IMG/VR virus record: IMGVR_UViG_2563366946_000008
Direction: 5' to 3' (one strand)
Length of the DNA: 17,964 nt
Source: a virus
Taxonomy: Duplodnaviria > Heunggongvirae > Uroviricota > Caudoviricetes
Positions 4,993 to 16,356 of the stretch are shown here, one piece after another. Position 1 is the stretch's first letter. Every line of letters begins with the position of its first letter. A model generated the notes under the pieces. That model ran no database searches and was not told the DNA's origin. It saw nothing but the letters and a program-made list of their open reading frames with translations. Both the position numbers and the translations under genes were made by a program.

Positions 4993-5125
4993 TTTTTGGG
5001 ACTCCTGGCTGATTAAGTATGTCGATAAGGCGTTTCCATCCGTCACGTAATTTACGGGTGATTCGTTCAAGTAAAGATTCGGAAGGGCAGCCAGCAACAG
5101 GCCACCCTGCAATGGCATATTGCAT
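4961..5125 (-). CDS. cIII: cIII (FtsH/HflB inhibitor), 54 aa
   Basis: Not in the ORF track (under 60 aa). Manual translation of the minus strand from the ATG at 5125 gives [54 protein letters not shown], matching lambda CIII. Confidence 0.85.
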   Translation of the reverse strand: MQYAIAGWPVAGCPSESLLERITRKLRDGWKRLIDILNQPGVPKNGSNNYGYPD

Positions 5126-5197
5126 GGTGTGCTCCTTATTTATACATAACGAAAAACGCCTCGAGTGAAGCGTAATTGGTATGCGGTAACGCCGCGC

Positions 5198-6760: not shown

Positions 6761-7033
6761 TCATCTCGCCGTCAGTTGTTTTGATTTCCGGTAGCCTGCC
6801 GCGTAAAGAGCTACGTTCGGAAGACAAGTTGAACCTTCATATTTTCTGGTCAACGTTGTCAGAGTTATCACTTCTGCTCTCATTGCTGGTTTGAGCTTGC
6901 ATTGCAAGACCACTCGTGAAGGGGTTGGCCTGTGTAGCTTGTCGGAGCTGATCGCCTCCTGACTTTGCAGATTTGCGCGACGAGCTCTACGGCGAGAAGC
7001 TGCGGTGCCTTTAAATTCTGTTTTTCTGGACAT
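6761..7033 (-). CDS. N: N-like transcription antiterminator with N-terminal arginine-rich motif, 90 aa
   Basis: N-terminus MSRKTEFKGTAASRRRARRANLQ carries an arginine-rich motif resembling the boxB-binding ARMs of phage 21/P22 N proteins; strong GGGAGG RBS 5 nt upstream; located where N sits in lambdoid genomes. Not lambda N itself. Confidence 0.6.
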   Translation of the reverse strand: MSRKTEFKGTAASRRRARRANLQSQEAISSDKLHRPTPSRVVLQCKLKPAMRAEVITLTTLTRKYEGSTCLPNVALYAAGYRKSKQLTAR

Positions 7034-7144
7034 GGATTCCTCCCGAATAAACTTTGGCGATGCAATCTCGAAGCTCCTCCTGAGACGGTTGCTTCGGCAT
7101 TGTGAACCGCCCCGGGTTTCCTGGAGAGTGTTTTATCTGTGAAC

Positions 7145-8035
7145 TCAGGCTGCCAGATCATCGTTTCCGATGGAAGCATAATAAGCTTTTTCTGCTTCTG
7201 CCGGAGGAGTATGGCCCAGCCTTTCCAGCAATCGTCGATTGTTATACCAGTCCACCCACGTGAGTGTGGCCAGTTCCACTTCTGCACGGTTTTTCCAGCT
7301 CTTACGGTGTATTACCTCCGCTTTGTAAAGACCATTGATGCTCTCCGCCATCGCGTTGTCATACGAGTCGCCTGTACTTCCTGTTGATGCCAGTAATCCG
7401 GCTTCCTTAAGCCGCTGTGTGTAGGCCAGCGATACATACTGAGAACCTTTATCACTGTGATGGACCGTGCCGGACGGTCGACGGGCCCATAACGCCTGCT
7501 CCAGTGCATCCAGCACGAATGTCGTTTCCATGGACGATGAGACCCGCCACCCCACGATGTATCCGGCAAACACATCAATGATGAACGCCACATAGACGAA
7601 GCCCCGCCATGTGCTGACGTAAGTAAAATCAGCCACCCACAGCTGGTCAGGTCGTTCTGCCACGAACTGACGGTTTACGCGGTCGCCTGCGGCAACGGCT
7701 TTCCGGCTGATGGTCGTACGGACCTTTTTACCCCGGAGAACACCGGCAAGTCCCATAACCGCCATGAGACGTGCCACAGTGCATCTGGCCACTCTGATAC
7801 CTTCCCGTAACAACTGACGCCAGACTTTACGCACACCGTATACCTTGTGATTTTCATCGTATACGCGCTGTATCTCTTTCTTCAGCCAGTCATCGCGCTG
7901 CGCACGGGCACTGCGTTTATCCGGATGATGTCGCTGTTGCTGACAGTGGTAATACGTTGACGGGGCAATATGCAGTTCGCTGCATAGCGGTCCGACCCCG
8001 TACTGCTCACGCAGCTTATCCAGCAGTGGCATCAT
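7145..8035 (-). CDS. IS3-family transposase OrfB (DDE catalytic part), 296 aa
   Basis: 296-aa ORF overlapping OrfA by 4 nt; size and position typical of IS3-family OrfB integrase-like catalytic domain. Confidence 0.9.
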
Positions 8036-8358
8036 TTTTTCCAGAGGCGGTCGAACTCCGCCTTCGCAAAATAAGCGGAAGCCTGGCGAAGGATATCGTT
8101 ACTGCGGCGCAGTTCACGATTTTCACGTTCCAGCTCTTTCAGACGCTGACGTTCAGCGGTGGTGAGCCCTCCATCACCGCCCCCGGTATCCCGCTCATGC
8201 TGGCGAACCCAGACACGCAGAGTCTCCGGCGTACAGCCAATCTTTGGAGCAATGGAACAAATTGTCGCCCATTGTGAGTCATATTCGCTCTGACTTTCCA
8301 GAACCATACGAATCGCCCTCTGACGGACTTCGGGGGAAAAACGAGTATTTTTAGTCAT
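8032..8358 (-). CDS. IS3-family transposase OrfA (HTH DNA-binding part), 108 aa
   Basis: Translation [30 protein letters not shown]... matches IS629/IS1203 OrfA as I recall it; ends in an A6 run (TGG AAA AAA TGA) overlapping the OrfB start, the classic IS3-family -1 frameshift window. Confidence 0.9.
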
Positions 8359-8412
8359 CCTGTTTACCTCTTTCTCAGGAAGTTTAGTCTCCAGGATTCC
8401 CGGGGCGGTTCA

Positions 8413-8679
8413 CAGCGTGACGTTGATCGCGCAGAAACAGATTTACTTATCAATCTGTCAGCTATTACCCAGCGCGGTCTGGCAAAGATGATTGGCTGTC
8501 ATGAATCGAAGATAAGCAGAACGGACTGGAGATTTATTGCTTCGGTCTTGTGTGCTTTCGGAATGGCATCAGACATCAGTCCGATTAGCAGGGCTTTTAA
8601 GTATGCGCTTGATGGACTCACCAATAAAAAACGCCCGGCGGCAACCGAGCGTTCTGAACAAATCCAGATGGAATTCTGA
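8413..8679 (+). pseudogene. cII: cII transcriptional activator, 5'-truncated by the IS element (about 8-10 N-terminal codons and all upstream signals missing)
   Basis: The reading frame is open from the first base after the IS (8413) and ends ...LTNKKRPAATERSEQIQMEF, identical to the lambda CII C-terminus as I recall it; the upstream part (…ISRTDWRFIASVLCAFG…) is CII-like but divergent. No start codon or RBS at the true N-terminus. Confidence 0.75.
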
Positions 8680-12942: not shown

Positions 12943-13326
12943 ATGCGTGATATTCAGATGGTTCTTGAGCGTTGGGGTGCGTGGGCGGCTAATAATCATG
13001 AAGATGTGACCTGGTCGTCCATTGCCGCCGGTTTTAAGGGATTAATTCCTTCAAAAGTAAAATCTCGCCCGCAATGTTGTGACGATGACGCGATGATCAT
13101 TTGCGGGTGCATGGCCCGTCTGAAAAAGAACAACAGCGATTTACACGATTTATTAGTAGATTATTATGTATGTGGTATGACATTCATGTCACTGGCAAGT
13201 AAGCATTGCTGCTCGGATGGTTATATCGGGAAAAGGTTACAGAAGGCTGAGGGCATAATTGAAGGGATGTTAATGGCATTAGATATCCGGTTAGATATGG
13301 ATATCGTTGCTAATAATTCTAATTGA
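12943..13326 (+). CDS. quuD: Q-like late-gene antiterminator (DLP12 QuuD type), 127 aa
   Basis: Translation from the internal Met ([62 protein letters not shown]…) with a cysteine cluster; GGAG RBS 7 nt upstream; last gene before the late region. Confidence 0.8.
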
Positions 13327-13463
13327 TATGCAATTGTTTACTAAAAGTTATTAAAAATGGGGCGTGGAAACGCCCCCAAAATAAAGGGTAATATATAACA
13401 GAAGGTTTATATAGTAAGAAGCAAGGTAGTGCTTCTAAAGGAAGTGGCTTGAGGGCTCCACTT

Positions 13464-13505
13464 ATATGTTGCGGAGGCAAAGCCTCCCGCAACATATCTT
13501 TTTCG
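13464..13505 (+). terminator. Intrinsic terminator (tR'-like) about 140 bp downstream of the Q-like gene; may also end the convergent porin transcript
   Basis: Near-perfect 14-bp inverted repeat ATATGTTGCGGAGG-CAAAG-CCTCCCGCAACATAT followed by CTTTTTCG on the plus strand; sits 10 bp beyond the porin stop codon on the other strand. Confidence 0.6.
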
Positions 13506-13514
13506 TAAGTCAGA

Positions 13515-14597
13515 TTAGAACTGATAAACCAGACCTACAGCGACGATGTCGTCGGTATCAATACCAGCTGTTTTGGTAAACTTACTATCGTCAATTAAGT
13601 TGATTTTGTAATCAACAAAAGTGGACATGTTTTTATTAAAGTAGTAAGTAGCACCGACATCGACATACTTGACTAAGTCTCGGTCACCATGAACACCAAG
13701 GTCTTTACCTTTTGACTGAAGGTAAGCAACAGATGGACGCAGACCGAAGTCAAACTGATATTGTGCTACTGCTTCAAAGTTTTGTGCTTTGTTTGCAATA
13801 TGGTTATTACCAAAAACGGTCATATTCTGAGTTTCAGAATATGTGGTAGCCAGATAGATATTGTTCGCATCATATTTCAGGCCTGCAGCCCATACTTCCG
13901 CATTTTTGCCGGAGGCATTGAATTTGCTCTTACCATAGGCGACCTGACCGTCAGTGCGATCTGATTTAGCATAGGTTGCACCCACGCCGAATCCTTCATA
14001 CTCATAAGTAGTGGAGAAACCGAAACCATCACCATTGGCTTCAGTTACGTCAGTGCGGTCATTTTTACCCTGATACTGAGCAGCAAAGTTCAGGCCATCG
14101 ACCAGACCAAAGAAGTCGTTGTTACGATAAGTTGCAACACCAGTAGTGCGACCAGTCATGAACACATCTGTTTGGGTCCAGGTATCACCACCGAATTCTG
14201 GCAGAACGTCAGTCCACGCACCGATGTCGTATGCTACACCGTAGTTACGGCCGTAATCGATTGAGCCGTAATCACCAAATTTCAGGCCTGCAAATGCAAG
14301 ACGGGTTTTGTCTTTGGAAGAACCTTGAGATTCAGCACGGTTGCCTTTGAATTCATATTCCCACTGACCGAAACCAGTCAGTTGATCGTTGATTTGGGTT
14401 TCACCTTTGAAGCCAAGACGGGCATAAGTAGTATCACCATCATCTGCATCATTAGAGGAGAAGTAGTGCTTGGCATTAACTTTCCCGTATAGATCCAGCT
14501 TGTTACTGTCTTTATTATAAATTTCAGCTGCCTGAGCAGACATCGCCATCAGTACTGATGCAGCTACAGCAGAAATTGCCACTGTTAATTTTTTCAT
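13515..14597 (-). CDS. nmpC: Outer-membrane general porin of the OmpC/NmpC/Lc family (lysogenic-conversion moron), 360 aa with signal peptide
   Basis: Signal peptide [23 protein letters not shown] followed by [17 protein letters not shown]…, porin hallmarks (…PEFGGDT…, …[29 protein letters not shown]…, C-terminal …VAVGLVYQF). Start taken at the internal Met, not the track's upstream ATG. Confidence 0.92.
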
Positions 14598-15023
14598 TGT
14601 ACGCCCTTTTTTTGAACTATTATTAAAAAATGATATCACTGCGCGATAAATATTCATCTAATCAATGTGATTATTTCAAGATGTAAGTTTTAGTTTCTCA
14701 TTTAATTTGTGAAGTAGATCTCTATTTTTATCTGAACCTTTTCTATCTAATCCTATTCATGGCTCTTGTCTGAACAAAAATAAATCTATTAGCTAATTTA
14801 TATTAATGGCACTTATTTATAAGTGCTCTATAATTCTTTAGCTTAATTTAAACAAACTAAAAATAACATCGGAAATTATTAACTGGTTATTTGTTGAAGT
14901 TTTCTTATGCATTTGTGGTGGTGTTTTGAACACTCGGTGGCATTCTCACAAATATCATTTAGTAGTTTACGTACGTAAAAAATTGGTTATGCTGTTAAGA
15001 GTGGTTACTTCGTCACACAGCTT

Positions 15024-15056
15024 AAACCCGCCGTCGAGCGGGTTTTTCCATTTTTT
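15024..15056 (+). terminator. Candidate intrinsic terminator or pause hairpin about 130 bp upstream of the holin gene
   Basis: Stem AAACCCGC / GCGGGTTT with 6-nt loop, followed by TTTTTCCATTTTTT on the plus strand. Confidence 0.5.
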
Positions 15057-15185
15057 GAGTCTCGATATTAGCTGATAACCCAATACCTGAGTTATTCACT
15101 GACTCCGAATCTGTTACGTTTCTGCCTTTATTGCGATACGTAGTATCCCCTTAATTTACACCCGCTTTGTCTGCGAGGTGGGGTT

Positions 15186-15401
15186 ATGAAATCCATGGAT
15201 AAGTTAACAACGGGTGTCGCCTATGGTACCTCAGCAGGTAGTGCCGGGTACTGGTTTTTACAGTTGCTCGATAAAGTCACGCCCTCACAGTGGGCGGCAA
15301 TAGGTGTGCTGGGTAGCCTGGTATTTGGCCTGCTGACGTACCTGACAAACCTTTATTTCAAGATTAAAGAAGATAAGCGCAAGGCTGCGAGAGGTGAATA
15401 A
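15186..15401 (+). CDS. S: Phage-21-type class II pinholin with dual-start motif (MKSM…), 71 aa
   Basis: Translation [71 protein letters not shown]: two transmembrane segments, Met1/Met4 dual start with Lys2, charged C-terminus; GAGGTGG RBS. Confidence 0.9.
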
Positions 15402-15898
15402 TGCCTCCATCATTACGAAAAGCCGTTGCTGCTGCTATTGGTGGCGGAGCAATTGCTATAGCATCAGTGTTAATCACTGGCCCAAGTGGTAACGATGGTC
15501 TGGAAGGTGTCAGCTACATACCATACAAAGATATTGTTGGTGTATGGACTGTATGTCACGGGCATACAGGAAAAGACATCATGCTCGGTAAAACGTATAC
15601 CAAAGCAGAATGCAAAGCCCTCCTGAATAAAGACCTTGCCACGGTCGCCAGACAAATTAACCCGTACATCAAAGTCGATATACCGGAAACAATGCGCGGC
15701 GCTCTTTACTCATTCGTTTACAACGTGGGTGCTGGCAATTTCAGAACATCGACGCTTCTTCGCAAAATAAACCAGGGCGATATCAAAGGCGCATGTGATC
15801 AGCTACGTCGCTGGACATATGCTGGCGGTAAGCAATGGAAAGGTCTCATGACTCGTCGTGAGATTGAGCGTGAAATCTGTTTGTGGGGTCAGCAATGA
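15401..15898 (+). CDS. R: SAR endolysin (T4-lysozyme-like muramidase with N-terminal signal-anchor-release domain), 165 aa
   Basis: N-terminal weakly hydrophobic Gly/Ala-rich segment [20 protein letters not shown] followed by a lysozyme-like catalytic region (E…D…T in …[24 protein letters not shown]…); start overlaps the holin stop. Confidence 0.9.
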
Positions 15899-16356
15899 AC
15901 AGAGTAACCGCGATTATCTCCGCTCTGGTTATCTGCATCATCGTCTGCCTGTCATGGGCTGTTAATCATTACCGTGATAACGCCATTACCTACAAAGCCC
16001 AGCGCGACAAAAATGCCAGAGAACTGACGCTGGCGAACGCGGTAATTACTGACATACAGATGCGTCAGCGTGATGTTGCTGCGCTCGATGCAAAATACAC
16101 GAAGGAGTTAGCTGATGCGAAAGCTGAAAATGATGCTCTGCGTGATGATGTTGCCGCTGGTCGTCGTCGGTTGCACATCAAAGCAGTCTGTCAGTCAGTG
16201 CGTGAAGCCACCACCGCCTCCGGCGTGGATAATGCAGCCTCCCCCCGACTGGCAGACACCGCTGAACGGGATTATTTCACCCTCAGAGAGAGGCTGATCA
16301 CTATGCAAAAACAACTGGAAGGAACCCAGAAGTATATTAATGAGCAGTGCAGATAG
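15895..16356 (+). CDS. Rz: Rz i-spanin (inner-membrane spanin subunit), 153 aa
   Basis: N-terminal transmembrane segment ([18 protein letters not shown]) followed by a charged, coiled-coil-like periplasmic domain; start overlaps the endolysin stop (ATGA). Confidence 0.8.
16115..16297 (+). CDS. Rz1: Rz1 o-spanin lipoprotein, embedded in the +1 frame of Rz, 60 aa
   Basis: Lipoprotein signal peptide with lipobox ([15 protein letters not shown]) followed by a proline-rich mature region ([18 protein letters not shown]); lies entirely inside Rz in another frame. Confidence 0.75.

Follow-up and report, generated by a model that had tools for sequence, protein, structure and literature searches.

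The pR'-6S RNA-tR' unit of phage lambda, with its 194-nt 6S RNA, and the Q21 loading complex share one regulatory logic, namely a constitutive promoter, a promoter-proximal stop, and a Q protein loaded at the promoter. In lambda, 21, 82, and the Stx phages, pR' directly follows Q. The Stx phages are arranged as Q933W-pR'-tR'-stx and produce a short pR' RNA, StxS; their pR' overlaps the end of Q, they carry their cargo (tRNAs, stx) in the sense orientation, downstream of pR', and the distance from pR' to tR' was placed at 258 nt by dRNA-seq and Term-seq (PMC7547250). The late antiterminator family concerned, Q21/Q933W, is named in bioRxiv 10.1101/651190. A locus with the order and orientation quuD-ipeX-nmpC-essD-rrrD-rzpD is found in DLP12 of E. 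coli K-12 (the qsr' region, also in hybrid phage 434B). In reviews, IpeX of DLP12/PA-2 is described as an RNA of ~167 nt directly 3' of the phage porin stop and part of the porin transcript, and it is reported to repress OmpC/OmpF synthesis. A literature search found no publication joining DLP12, nmpC, and antitermination.

We analyzed a 17,964-nt stretch of a Caudoviricetes record (IMGVR_UViG_2563366946_000008), hereafter the window, in which a porin gene lies between a Q gene and the lysis genes in the same order and orientation as in DLP12. This block is the DLP12/PA-2/434B "quuD-nmpC-essD-rrrD" module, an element of a kind already known. Of 5426 complete E. coli genomes, 2395 carry at least 80% of it, as do 36 phage records, some of them 99.9% identical. 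Compared with DLP12, DNA identity is 96% for Q, 93.7% for the spacer between Q and the porin, 99% for the pR' module, and 97.7% for the holin, while the porin gene is the most divergent part (86%) and is intact here, whereas nmpC of DLP12 is split by IS5. Identity to the lc porin block of phage PA-2 (GenBank J02580) is 93%, and to ev017 and PhiR57_1 it is 99.9%. The isolated lambdoid phages ev017, PhiR57_1, 2G7b, and Perceval are inducible or plaque-forming, whereas cI, cro, pL, and pR are absent from the copy in the window, where an IS629-like element lies between N (6761-7033) and a truncated cII. Without its immunity region, this copy looks domesticated. The sequence features described in a first-pass annotation of the locus were all found at or near where it had placed them, including a porin accessory gene antisense between Q and the lysis genes, which is convergent with Q and intact. 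A third hairpin, at 13359-13376 with its T-run on the minus (porin) strand, had been missed. The features of the locus are as follows:

12943-13326, plus strand: late antiterminator Q (QuuD type, 127 aa, ATG start), PF06530 match
13349-13514, minus strand: porin-tail RNA at the IpeX position, from spacer identity and fold, with predicted ends
13359-13376, minus strand: porin/IpeX intrinsic terminator, GGGGCG-loop-CGCCCC then AUUUUUAAUA, from a terminator scan
13464-13505, T4-T5 run on the plus strand: first hairpin, long and bulged, the 5' stem-loop of the porin 3' tail, from its fold
13515-14597, minus strand: general porin of NmpC/Lc/OmpD type, intact, 360 aa, full-length Porin_1 match
14598-14962, no strand assigned: AT-rich control region of the porin cassette (GC 0.245-0.33), from locus identity
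14614-14646, plus strand: sigma-E-type promoter, GAACTA 14614-14619, 16 nt, TCACT 14636-14640, start at A14646, derived from the amplicon description in PMC7918800
14966-14993, plus strand: late promoter pR', -35 TTTACG 14966-14971 and -10 TATGCT 14988-14993, from homology to Stx-phage pR'
between the -35 and -10 of pR', plus strand: palindrome and A-tract TTTACGTACGTAAAAAA, candidate Q-binding element, which tracks Q class
14996-15016, plus strand: conserved initial transcribed sequence TAAGAGTGGTTACTTCGTCAC, a 21-nt pattern, with a predicted start at ~14997-15000
15024-15056, plus strand: second hairpin, 8-bp GC stem, 6-nt loop, and TTTTTCCATTTTTT, from the terminator scan, as promoter-proximal late terminator
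15186-16356, plus strand: phage-21-type lysis cassette, holin S 15186-15401, lysozyme R 15401-15898, Rz 15883-16356, from Pfam

The Q open reading frame as listed starts at TTG 12928, and the ATG at 12943 gives the 127-aa protein, which is annotated quuD in RefSeq genomes. In a profile search it matched Pfam PF06530 with an E-value of 7.7e-54, and it matched the solved Q21 structures at 4e-8. Its identity to the Q of Stx2 phage P13374 (Q933W type) is 83% over 120 aa. On PF06530, the Q21 structures, and the Q933W identity, the protein belongs to the Q21/Q933W family; lambda Q is unrelated to it in sequence. The similarity to Q933W-type genes stops at ~13302, within the last Q codons. The lysis genes matched Phage_holin_2_1, Phage_lysozyme, and Phage_lysis and are annotated essD, rrrD, and rzpD in E. 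coli. They have the phage 21 arrangement of a class II (S21) holin, lysozyme, and Rz in that order, and the 434B record annotates a holin/antiholin pair and a SAR endolysin.

The late promoter of this Q class was found on the far side of the porin. Positions 14963-15047 align with the DNA after Q in Stx phages, across the -35, the -10, the start region, and the first hairpin of that region. In Stx phages this promoter (TTTACG-16-TATCAT) comes directly after Q, with its start at ~1536-1538 of locus L002, and a hairpin with a T-run ends 258 nt past that start, in line with the published pR'-tR' distance. The two systems share the Q family, the promoter hexamers, the spacing, the start region, and the first hairpin. 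In the Stx phages, however, the cargo is sense and downstream of pR' and the mapped terminator is at +258, whereas here the cargo is antisense and upstream of pR' and the sole terminator is at ~+28 to +57. The Q933W-type late promoter occurs once in the window (14966-15056), beyond the porin and 130 bp short of the holin, and the start-region motif likewise has a single exact core. From the Q stop to this motif there are 1669 bp, versus 18 bp in the Q933W phages, and the canonical position of pR' immediately 3' of Q is thus replaced by one displaced by the porin cassette. What is retained is a cognate pR' with a promoter-proximal terminator ahead of the lysis genes. Each of the two pR' hexamers, TATGCT (-10) and TTTACG (-35), has 4 of 6 consensus matches. 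The candidate Q-binding element here is a short palindrome (14968-14979) plus A-tract, in contrast to the Q21 element, in which two 8-bp subsites form a direct repeat.

Just upstream of the holin, the second hairpin has its stem at 15024-15045, followed by TTTTTCCATTTTTT to 15056. It was terminator-like in the scan, and its energy alone is unremarkable (z -1.9). The scan listed no further terminator-like site between this hairpin and the holin. Across porin-carrying loci, the 14966-15056 module is 97-100% conserved. The first-pass annotation had pointed out this hairpin and its T-run, and had suggested that either a short 6S-like transcript or a separate late promoter module could account for it; the homology of 14963-15047 to the mapped Stx-phage pR' agrees with that suggestion. 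Because the pR' module tracks Q class whether it lies next to Q or behind cargo, we conclude that the hairpin is the promoter-proximal late terminator, with a predicted termination efficiency; both the terminator and the start site are assigned by homology and structure. The hairpin may leak or may serve Q loading in another way, since in Stx phages most transcripts pass the early hairpin and the mapped 3' end lies 258 nt downstream.

The porin matched Porin_1 over 337 of 337 profile positions (E 2e-151), and its best solved relatives are OmpC/OmpK36 (E ~1e-137). A 380-aa porin open reading frame reaching 14657 is an in-frame upstream extension of the 360-aa coding sequence. The protein matches the lc gene product of phage PA-2 and nmpC of DLP12/434B. 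It has the features of the NmpC/Lc porin subgroup, with a full-length 16-strand porin domain, a signal peptide, and a C-terminal aromatic residue (Phe, ...VYQF), and its gene sits where this subgroup is found, in a lambdoid prophage, convergent with Q and between Q and the lysis genes. In LF82, the NmpC porin of prophage Perceval, which is 99.4% identical, is expressed 10-fold above prophage background in the lysogen. The cassette can be classed as a moron on the basis of its own terminator, an AT-rich flank with a GC of 0.25-0.33, and the expression of the near-identical LF82 porin, with a promoter location that is predicted.

Upstream of the porin, an AT-rich tract runs for 588 bp (14598-15185) with a GC of 0.245-0.33 across 14500-14999 and no open reading frame of at least 50 aa, in agreement with the 590-bp ORF-free tract of the first-pass annotation. 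The further statement that the tract holds the porin promoter follows simply from its position; the porin 5' leader is likewise placed in its 14598-14962 part. A porin promoter search gave only weak pattern matches and none that was reliable; one candidate on the minus strand, GAGAAA-18-TG-AATAAT at 14699-14670, is a pattern match only. The tract also contains an 8+8 palindrome at 14809-14826, and 14598-14962 is 84-99.7% identical among porin-carrying loci. The amplicon in PMC7918800 is stated to run from -121 to +650 relative to a start site taken from Rueggeberg 2015. The forward primer maps to 14525-14544, which puts +1 at 14646, just after GAACTA-16-TCACT; the reverse primer had no placement at ≤3 substitutions, and this sigma-E start is therefore read from the forward primer only. 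According to work cited in the same paper, the DLP12 S-R-Rz operon is under the control of a Q-type factor, RpoE, and Hha. With a sigma-E-type promoter reported for the DLP12 lysis genes 350 bp upstream of pR', pR' may not be the sole entry to these genes.

On the other side of the porin, the whole spacer between Q and the porin was found only where the porin was present, and it is 93.7% identical to the quuD-nmpC spacer of K-12 (L005 841-1029). The first hairpin has its stem at 13464-13497, followed by CTTTTTCG on the plus strand. It folds at -21.9 kcal/mol on that strand (z -5.2, with 0 of 200 shuffles as stable) and at -23.5 kcal/mol on the minus strand (z -4.3), and it is missing from the terminator-scan list, probably because of the bulge in its stem. 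It was present solely with the porin, in 36 of 36 phage records and in every locus long enough. Read on the minus strand, the RNA of 13349-13514 folds at -53.6 kcal/mol (z -6.25), and the terminator at 13359-13376 would end it ~166 nt from the porin stop, directly 3' of the porin on the porin strand, which fits the position and length described for IpeX. Among 33 variants, the stem of this terminator is invariant and changes are confined to the loop. Rfam gave no family for IpeX or a late leader at gathering or relaxed thresholds, and weak matches to sau-19 and Trp_leader were dismissed as chance; ipeX is not annotated in the K-12 records ER3413 and MG1655. From position and linkage, the first hairpin is best assigned to the porin cassette, at a position that matches IpeX as the 3' tail of the porin mRNA, with predicted IpeX ends.

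We consider it highly probable, judging from the sequence, that the porin cassette sits between Q and its site of action, and that the Q-dependent late transcript starts beyond the porin, on the holin side, and never runs across it. The cassette would be a self-contained insertion of ~1.66 kb (~13303-14962) carrying, on its minus strand, an AT-rich promoter region, the porin gene, a structured IpeX-like 3' tail, and the terminator at 13359-13376. In the lysogen, the porin would be expressed from its own promoter, and the tail RNA would lower the host porins OmpC and OmpF, a step taken from the literature. The antisense orientation and the flanking hairpins would insulate the cassette. On the other strand, transcription would start near 15000 from pR' at 14966-14993. 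Without Q, RNA polymerase would halt at 15024-15056; the product would be a ~50-nt RNA, and the lysis genes would stay off. Once Q occupies the palindrome within pR', where we infer that it binds, the terminator would be ignored and transcription would proceed into S, R, and Rz. The block is compatible with lytic growth, as isolated plaque-forming phages have it at 99-99.9% identity.

The first-pass annotation had proposed a different course, in which pR' directly follows Q, the first hairpin serves as tR' about 140 bp after Q, a distance likened to the pR'-to-tR' spacing of lambda, and a Q-modified transcript crosses the porin antisense and possibly silences it on induction. The canonical layout of the phages named above favors this, as do the strength of the hairpin and its T-run on the plus strand, yet we regard it as very improbable. 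No promoter-like site was found in 13327-13463, between Q and the hairpin, and the sole Q933W-type promoter and Q-site in the window is at 14966, downstream of the porin. The spacer travels with the porin rather than with Q and is better explained as the porin 3' tail/IpeX, and the plus-strand T-run of the hairpin, T5 or T4 across 33 variants, is down to T4 in about a third of them. The hairpin was accordingly rejected as tR', given the lack of an upstream promoter and its linkage to the porin, in whose transcript tail it lies. Silencing of the porin by antisense late transcription is probably wrong as well, because the late promoter and terminator adjoin the holin and not Q.

Two other routes into the region were weighed against a pR' beside the holin. 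The sigma-E-type promoter at 14646 could be the main driver of the lysis genes, as a domesticated envelope-stress response, with Q acting on a long transcript or as an ordinary activator and 14966-15056 left as a relic or a small-RNA gene. The start placed beside GAACTA-16-TCACT by the PMC7918800 fragment, the Q-type factor, RpoE, and Hha control cited there, and the lost immunity region and domesticated look of this copy are in line with it. Such a transcript must still pass the hairpin at 15024-15056, however, and 97-100% conservation of the module and a palindrome that tracks Q class over large evolutionary distances are unexpected for a relic; the same block is also carried by plaque-forming phages. 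We judge this reading improbable. Antisense transcription of the porin on induction could instead come from early pR, with N-modified polymerase running through Q, the hairpins, and the porin. N-modified transcription in lambda ignores intrinsic terminators, and N is encoded in the window, but pR is missing from this copy, and this route cannot apply here. In intact relatives, N-modified transcription from pR could cross the porin antisense, as a transcript different from the one first proposed; we hold this to be a possible but rather unlikely process, and one that would complement the Q-dependent late transcript rather than replace it.

To describe the diversity of the locus we used DNA-motif searches, as a Q-based locus search gave only near-identical Q genes. 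In 108 loci from other phages and Enterobacterales, the promoter element varies with Q class, and it either adjoins Q or sits 0.4-2.9 kb away behind mostly antisense cargo. Of 80 viral loci with the 21-nt start-region pattern, 66 have a PF06530-family Q upstream of it, and most of the other 14 have no upstream sequence. Across these 80 viral motif loci, Q lies ≤62 bp from the motif in 19, the order is Q-porin-motif in 20, and other cargo separates Q from the motif in 27. The pattern is likewise found in Yersinia, Enterobacter, Citrobacter, Trabulsiella, Serratia, and others. Between the -35 and -10, every Q cluster has a palindrome of its own, regardless of distance (present in 19/19 loci of the QuuD class and 11/11 of the Q933W class), and this pairing with Q class also holds in 28 loci of other Enterobacterales. 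In Trabulsiella, a palindrome of the type in the window lies 66-70 bp after a closely related Q. A hairpin (≤-8 kcal/mol) with a T-run occurs at ~+28 to +62 in 47 of 52 distinct module variants, which contain 26 different hairpin sequences.

These comparisons lead us to favor, by a modest degree, the view that the short gap from the 3' end of Q to the -35 of pR' is a recurrent insertion hot spot in Q21/Q933W-family lambdoid prophages of Enterobacterales, distinct from the stx site downstream of pR', where cargo is insulated from the late transcript and the palindrome predicts Q-promoter pairing kilobases apart. For annotation, the late promoter and terminator of a common prophage type adjoin the holin and not Q, and the frequent placement of cargo between Q and pR', with a promoter palindrome that tracks Q class, could help in finding late promoters, and also accessory or defence genes, in prophages. 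The cargo in this gap is mostly antisense and of low GC, with examples including the porin with IpeX, a KAP NTPase, an NA37-like protein, a lipoprotein, and a hydrolase. It ends within a few bases of the -35 of pR', and because it ends just before that element, it would be insulated from the Q-dependent late transcript.

The window holds a lambda-like prophage with the gene order int, exo/bet/gam, kil, cIII with its Rfam thermoregulator, SieB, N, an IS629-like element, truncated cII, O, P, nin genes, RusA, Q, porin, S/R/Rz, Bor, and a TonB fragment. The sequence features described in the first-pass annotation (Q, the porin, two hairpins, the AT-rich ORF-free tract, and the holin) were confirmed, and a third hairpin that it had missed was found. 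The features of the Q-to-lysis region are as follows:

12943-13326: Q gene (PF06530 match, E 7.7e-54)
13359-13376: third hairpin, with its T-run on the porin strand
13464-13497: first hairpin, then CTTTTTCG (-21.9 kcal/mol, z -5.2)
13515-14597, minus strand: porin CDS, full-length Porin_1 match; intact, 360 aa, with a signal peptide and C-terminal Phe
porin-holin spacer: 588 bp, GC down to 24.5%, no ORFs of at least 50 aa
14966-14971: -35 TTTACG, by homology to the Stx-phage promoter
14988-14993: -10 TATGCT, by homology to the Stx-phage promoter
14996-15016: conserved start region TAAGAGTGGTTACTTCGTCAC, by homology
~14997-15000: putative late start, by homology
15024-15056: late hairpin and T-run, by homology (second hairpin 15024-15045, then TTTTTCCATTTTTT; terminator-like in a terminator scan)
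15186: holin start, followed by lysozyme and Rz

Q matches the solved Q21 structures (E 4e-8) and shares 83% identity with the Q of Stx2 phage P13374 (144 aa); the group has been named the Q21/Q933W family by Yin et al. (bioRxiv 10.1101/651190). When the porin-holin spacer was used as query in a sensitive DNA search, window positions 14963-15047 matched, at ~78% identity, a stretch beginning in the last Q codons of hundreds of Stx phages, and also one immediately before the holin of Shigella phage SfII. TTTACG-16-TATCAT is the sole promoter-like site in the Stx-phage stretch, and from the start ~7 nt past it (~1536-1538 in the Stx-phage locus L002) to the end of a hairpin and T-run at 1768-1795 the distance is 258 nt. 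The same pR'-tR' distance of 258 nt was obtained from dRNA-seq and Term-seq by Sy et al. (PMC7547250). By homology, the module at 14966-15056 is the probable late promoter (pR') of the window, and no second copy was found in the window.

The main idea of the first-pass annotation, late transcription running antisense through the porin, is left unsupported, as the only promoter copy in the window lies past the porin, while its alternative of an independent late promoter module beside the holin, giving a short terminated transcript, is supported by the homologous promoter, start region, and hairpin. N-modified polymerase from pR could possibly cross the porin antisense in intact relatives, but pR is not present in this prophage copy. 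The first hairpin was also considered as tR' and rejected: no promoter-like site was found between Q and this hairpin, and the Q-porin spacer occurs only together with the porin (36/36 phage records and every porin locus long enough in our set). Because of this linkage, and because similarity to Q genes without a porin is lost at ~13302, the first hairpin belongs to the porin cassette. It may have a secondary role in stopping unmodified transcription out of Q; its plus-strand T-run varies between T5 and T4. Read on the porin strand, the stretch of ~166 nt running from the porin stop codon up to the terminator (13359-13376) folds at -53.6 kcal/mol (z -6.25), and in a comparison of 33 sequence variants the stems were preserved, with changes mainly in loops. 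The spacer is matched by the phage PA-2 lc record (J02580) and the DLP12-derived region of phage 434B, and shares 93.7% identity with the quuD-nmpC spacer of K-12.

To place the module in context, the nearest upstream PF06530-type Q was located in each of 80 viral contigs with the start-region motif. Q ended at most 62 bp from the motif in 19 of the 80, a porin lay between them in 20 (1.67-1.69 kb), and other cargo did so in 27 (0.63-2.5 kb); no upstream Q was found in 14, mostly short of upstream sequence. After clustering the Q proteins at 88% identity, we observed that every cluster has its own short palindrome and A-tract between -35 and -10, constant within the cluster. The QuuD cluster has TTTACGTACGTAAAAAA in 19/19 loci, 1669-1688 bp from the Q stop, and the Q933W cluster has TTTACGATCGTAAAAA in 11/11 loci, 18 bp from the Q stop. 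The other clusters have GCGGTCCGC, GCGTACGC, GTTATAAC, GGAATTCC, and TCGTTACGA; these five, together with ACGTACGT and ACGATCGT, are among the forms in the 34 nt upstream of the TAAGAGTGGTTAC motif (L087-L166 and L207-L234). The pairing was also seen in 28 loci from one-genome-per-species contigs (L207-L234) of Yersinia, Enterobacter, Citrobacter, Trabulsiella, Serratia, and Phytobacter. Trabulsiella odontotermitis has the window-type palindrome 66-70 bp past a Q sharing 82% identity with Q933W. Since the promoter element changes with the Q protein at any distance, we infer that the palindrome is a candidate Q-binding or specificity element for Q21/Q933W-family proteins. Homology between contexts begins within a few bases of the -35, which fits the report that pR'21 positions -40 to -1 with the downstream pause element suffice for Q21 loading (bioRxiv 10.1101/651190).

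Cargo in the non-porin loci spans ~0.6-2.5 kb between Q and the late promoter. In 13 inspected loci (L090, L092, L094, L102, L105, L106, L118, L124, L126, L129, L133, L137, and L158), the intervening DNA has a GC of 31-44%, and the main ORFs are antisense to Q in 12. Pfam matches comprised a KAP NTPase, an NA37-like protein, and an alpha/beta hydrolase, with the rest having no match; a lipoprotein was also seen among the cargo. In SfII, this position (L086 3082-4696) holds two antisense ORFs. This recurrent site thus takes any of several alternative cargos, the porin cassette among them, and the Q-pR' gap is possibly a hot spot for accessory or defence genes.

Of 52 distinct module variants, 47 carry a hairpin of -8 kcal/mol or lower with an immediate T-run ~28-62 nt past the start; 26 hairpin sequences are represented, so this architecture is conserved beyond sequence alone. 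As the sole terminator-like site between the window's pR' and the holin, the second hairpin is the likely gate, keeping the lysis genes off without Q; a stop there would give an RNA of ~50 nt. The dominant 3' end in Stx phages lies farther downstream, at 258 nt (PMC7547250), and the early hairpin is therefore at least leaky there. In five loci (L024, L039-L041, and L166), similarity to the window ends right past this hairpin (15047 onward) and a different segment follows, which suggests that the end of the module may be a recombination boundary.

Of 5426 complete E. coli genomes, 2395 carry the 2.55-kb block from Q to the lysozyme start at 80% coverage or more, annotated as quuD, porin, essD, and rrrD, and the block occurs in 36 phage records, with plaque-forming ev017 and PhiR57_1 99.9% identical. 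Perceval (strain LF82) is 99.4% identical to the window over the block, and MG1655 has the same gene order, but its nmpC is split by IS5. The module is real but already well known. Across the porin-block loci (L006-L085), the late-promoter module and spacer are 92-100% identical. Variation is greatest in the porin gene (86-100% DNA identity in otherwise 97-100% identical blocks), a pattern consistent with diversifying exchange of a surface-exposed protein.

This prophage copy is probably defective and not inducible, so induction scenarios apply to intact relatives. None of cI, cro, pL, or pR is present in the window, and an IS3-family element occupies the place of the immunity region, between N and a cII lacking its N-terminus (first 31 profile positions):

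6761-7033: N
~7101-8426, minus strand: IS629-like IS3-family element
7145-8035, minus strand: its orfB
7961-8077, minus strand: its ALIL frameshift pseudoknot
8032-8358, minus strand: its orfA
8488-8679: truncated cII

The lambda cIII thermoregulator element, expected in a lambda-like pL operon, was matched at 5080-5138 on the minus strand (Rfam, 88.5 bits).

The AT-rich tract must contain the porin promoter and leader; the first-pass annotation had placed the promoter there, and position alone supports this, with a minus-strand search of the tract returning weak pattern matches only. In LF82 lysogens, expression of the near-identical Perceval porin exceeds the prophage background 10-fold. On the plus strand, a sigma-E-type motif (GAACTA-16-TCACT, 14614-14646) comes within 17 nt of the porin start codon, which is on the other strand. 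PMC7918800 reuses the coordinates of Rueggeberg 2015 (-121 to +650 of the DLP12 lysis-cassette start); its forward primer falls at window 14525, which would put the reported start at A14646, directly past the motif, with the porin ATG 49 nt away on the opposite strand. A porin leader longer than 49 nt would therefore overlap the sigma-E-type transcript head-to-head, and such an overlap, if it occurs, would fit down-regulation of porins under envelope stress. Hha acts together with H-NS. Hha is also among the regulators reported for the lysis operon in PMC7918800, a listing compatible with the first-pass suggestion that the tract is a likely H-NS target. A perfect 8+8 palindrome, GCACTTAT-TT-ATAAGTGC, at 14809-14826 in the tract overlaps a promoter-like site on the plus strand (14806-14834) whose TATAAT matches the consensus, and the palindrome could be an operator or a small hairpin.
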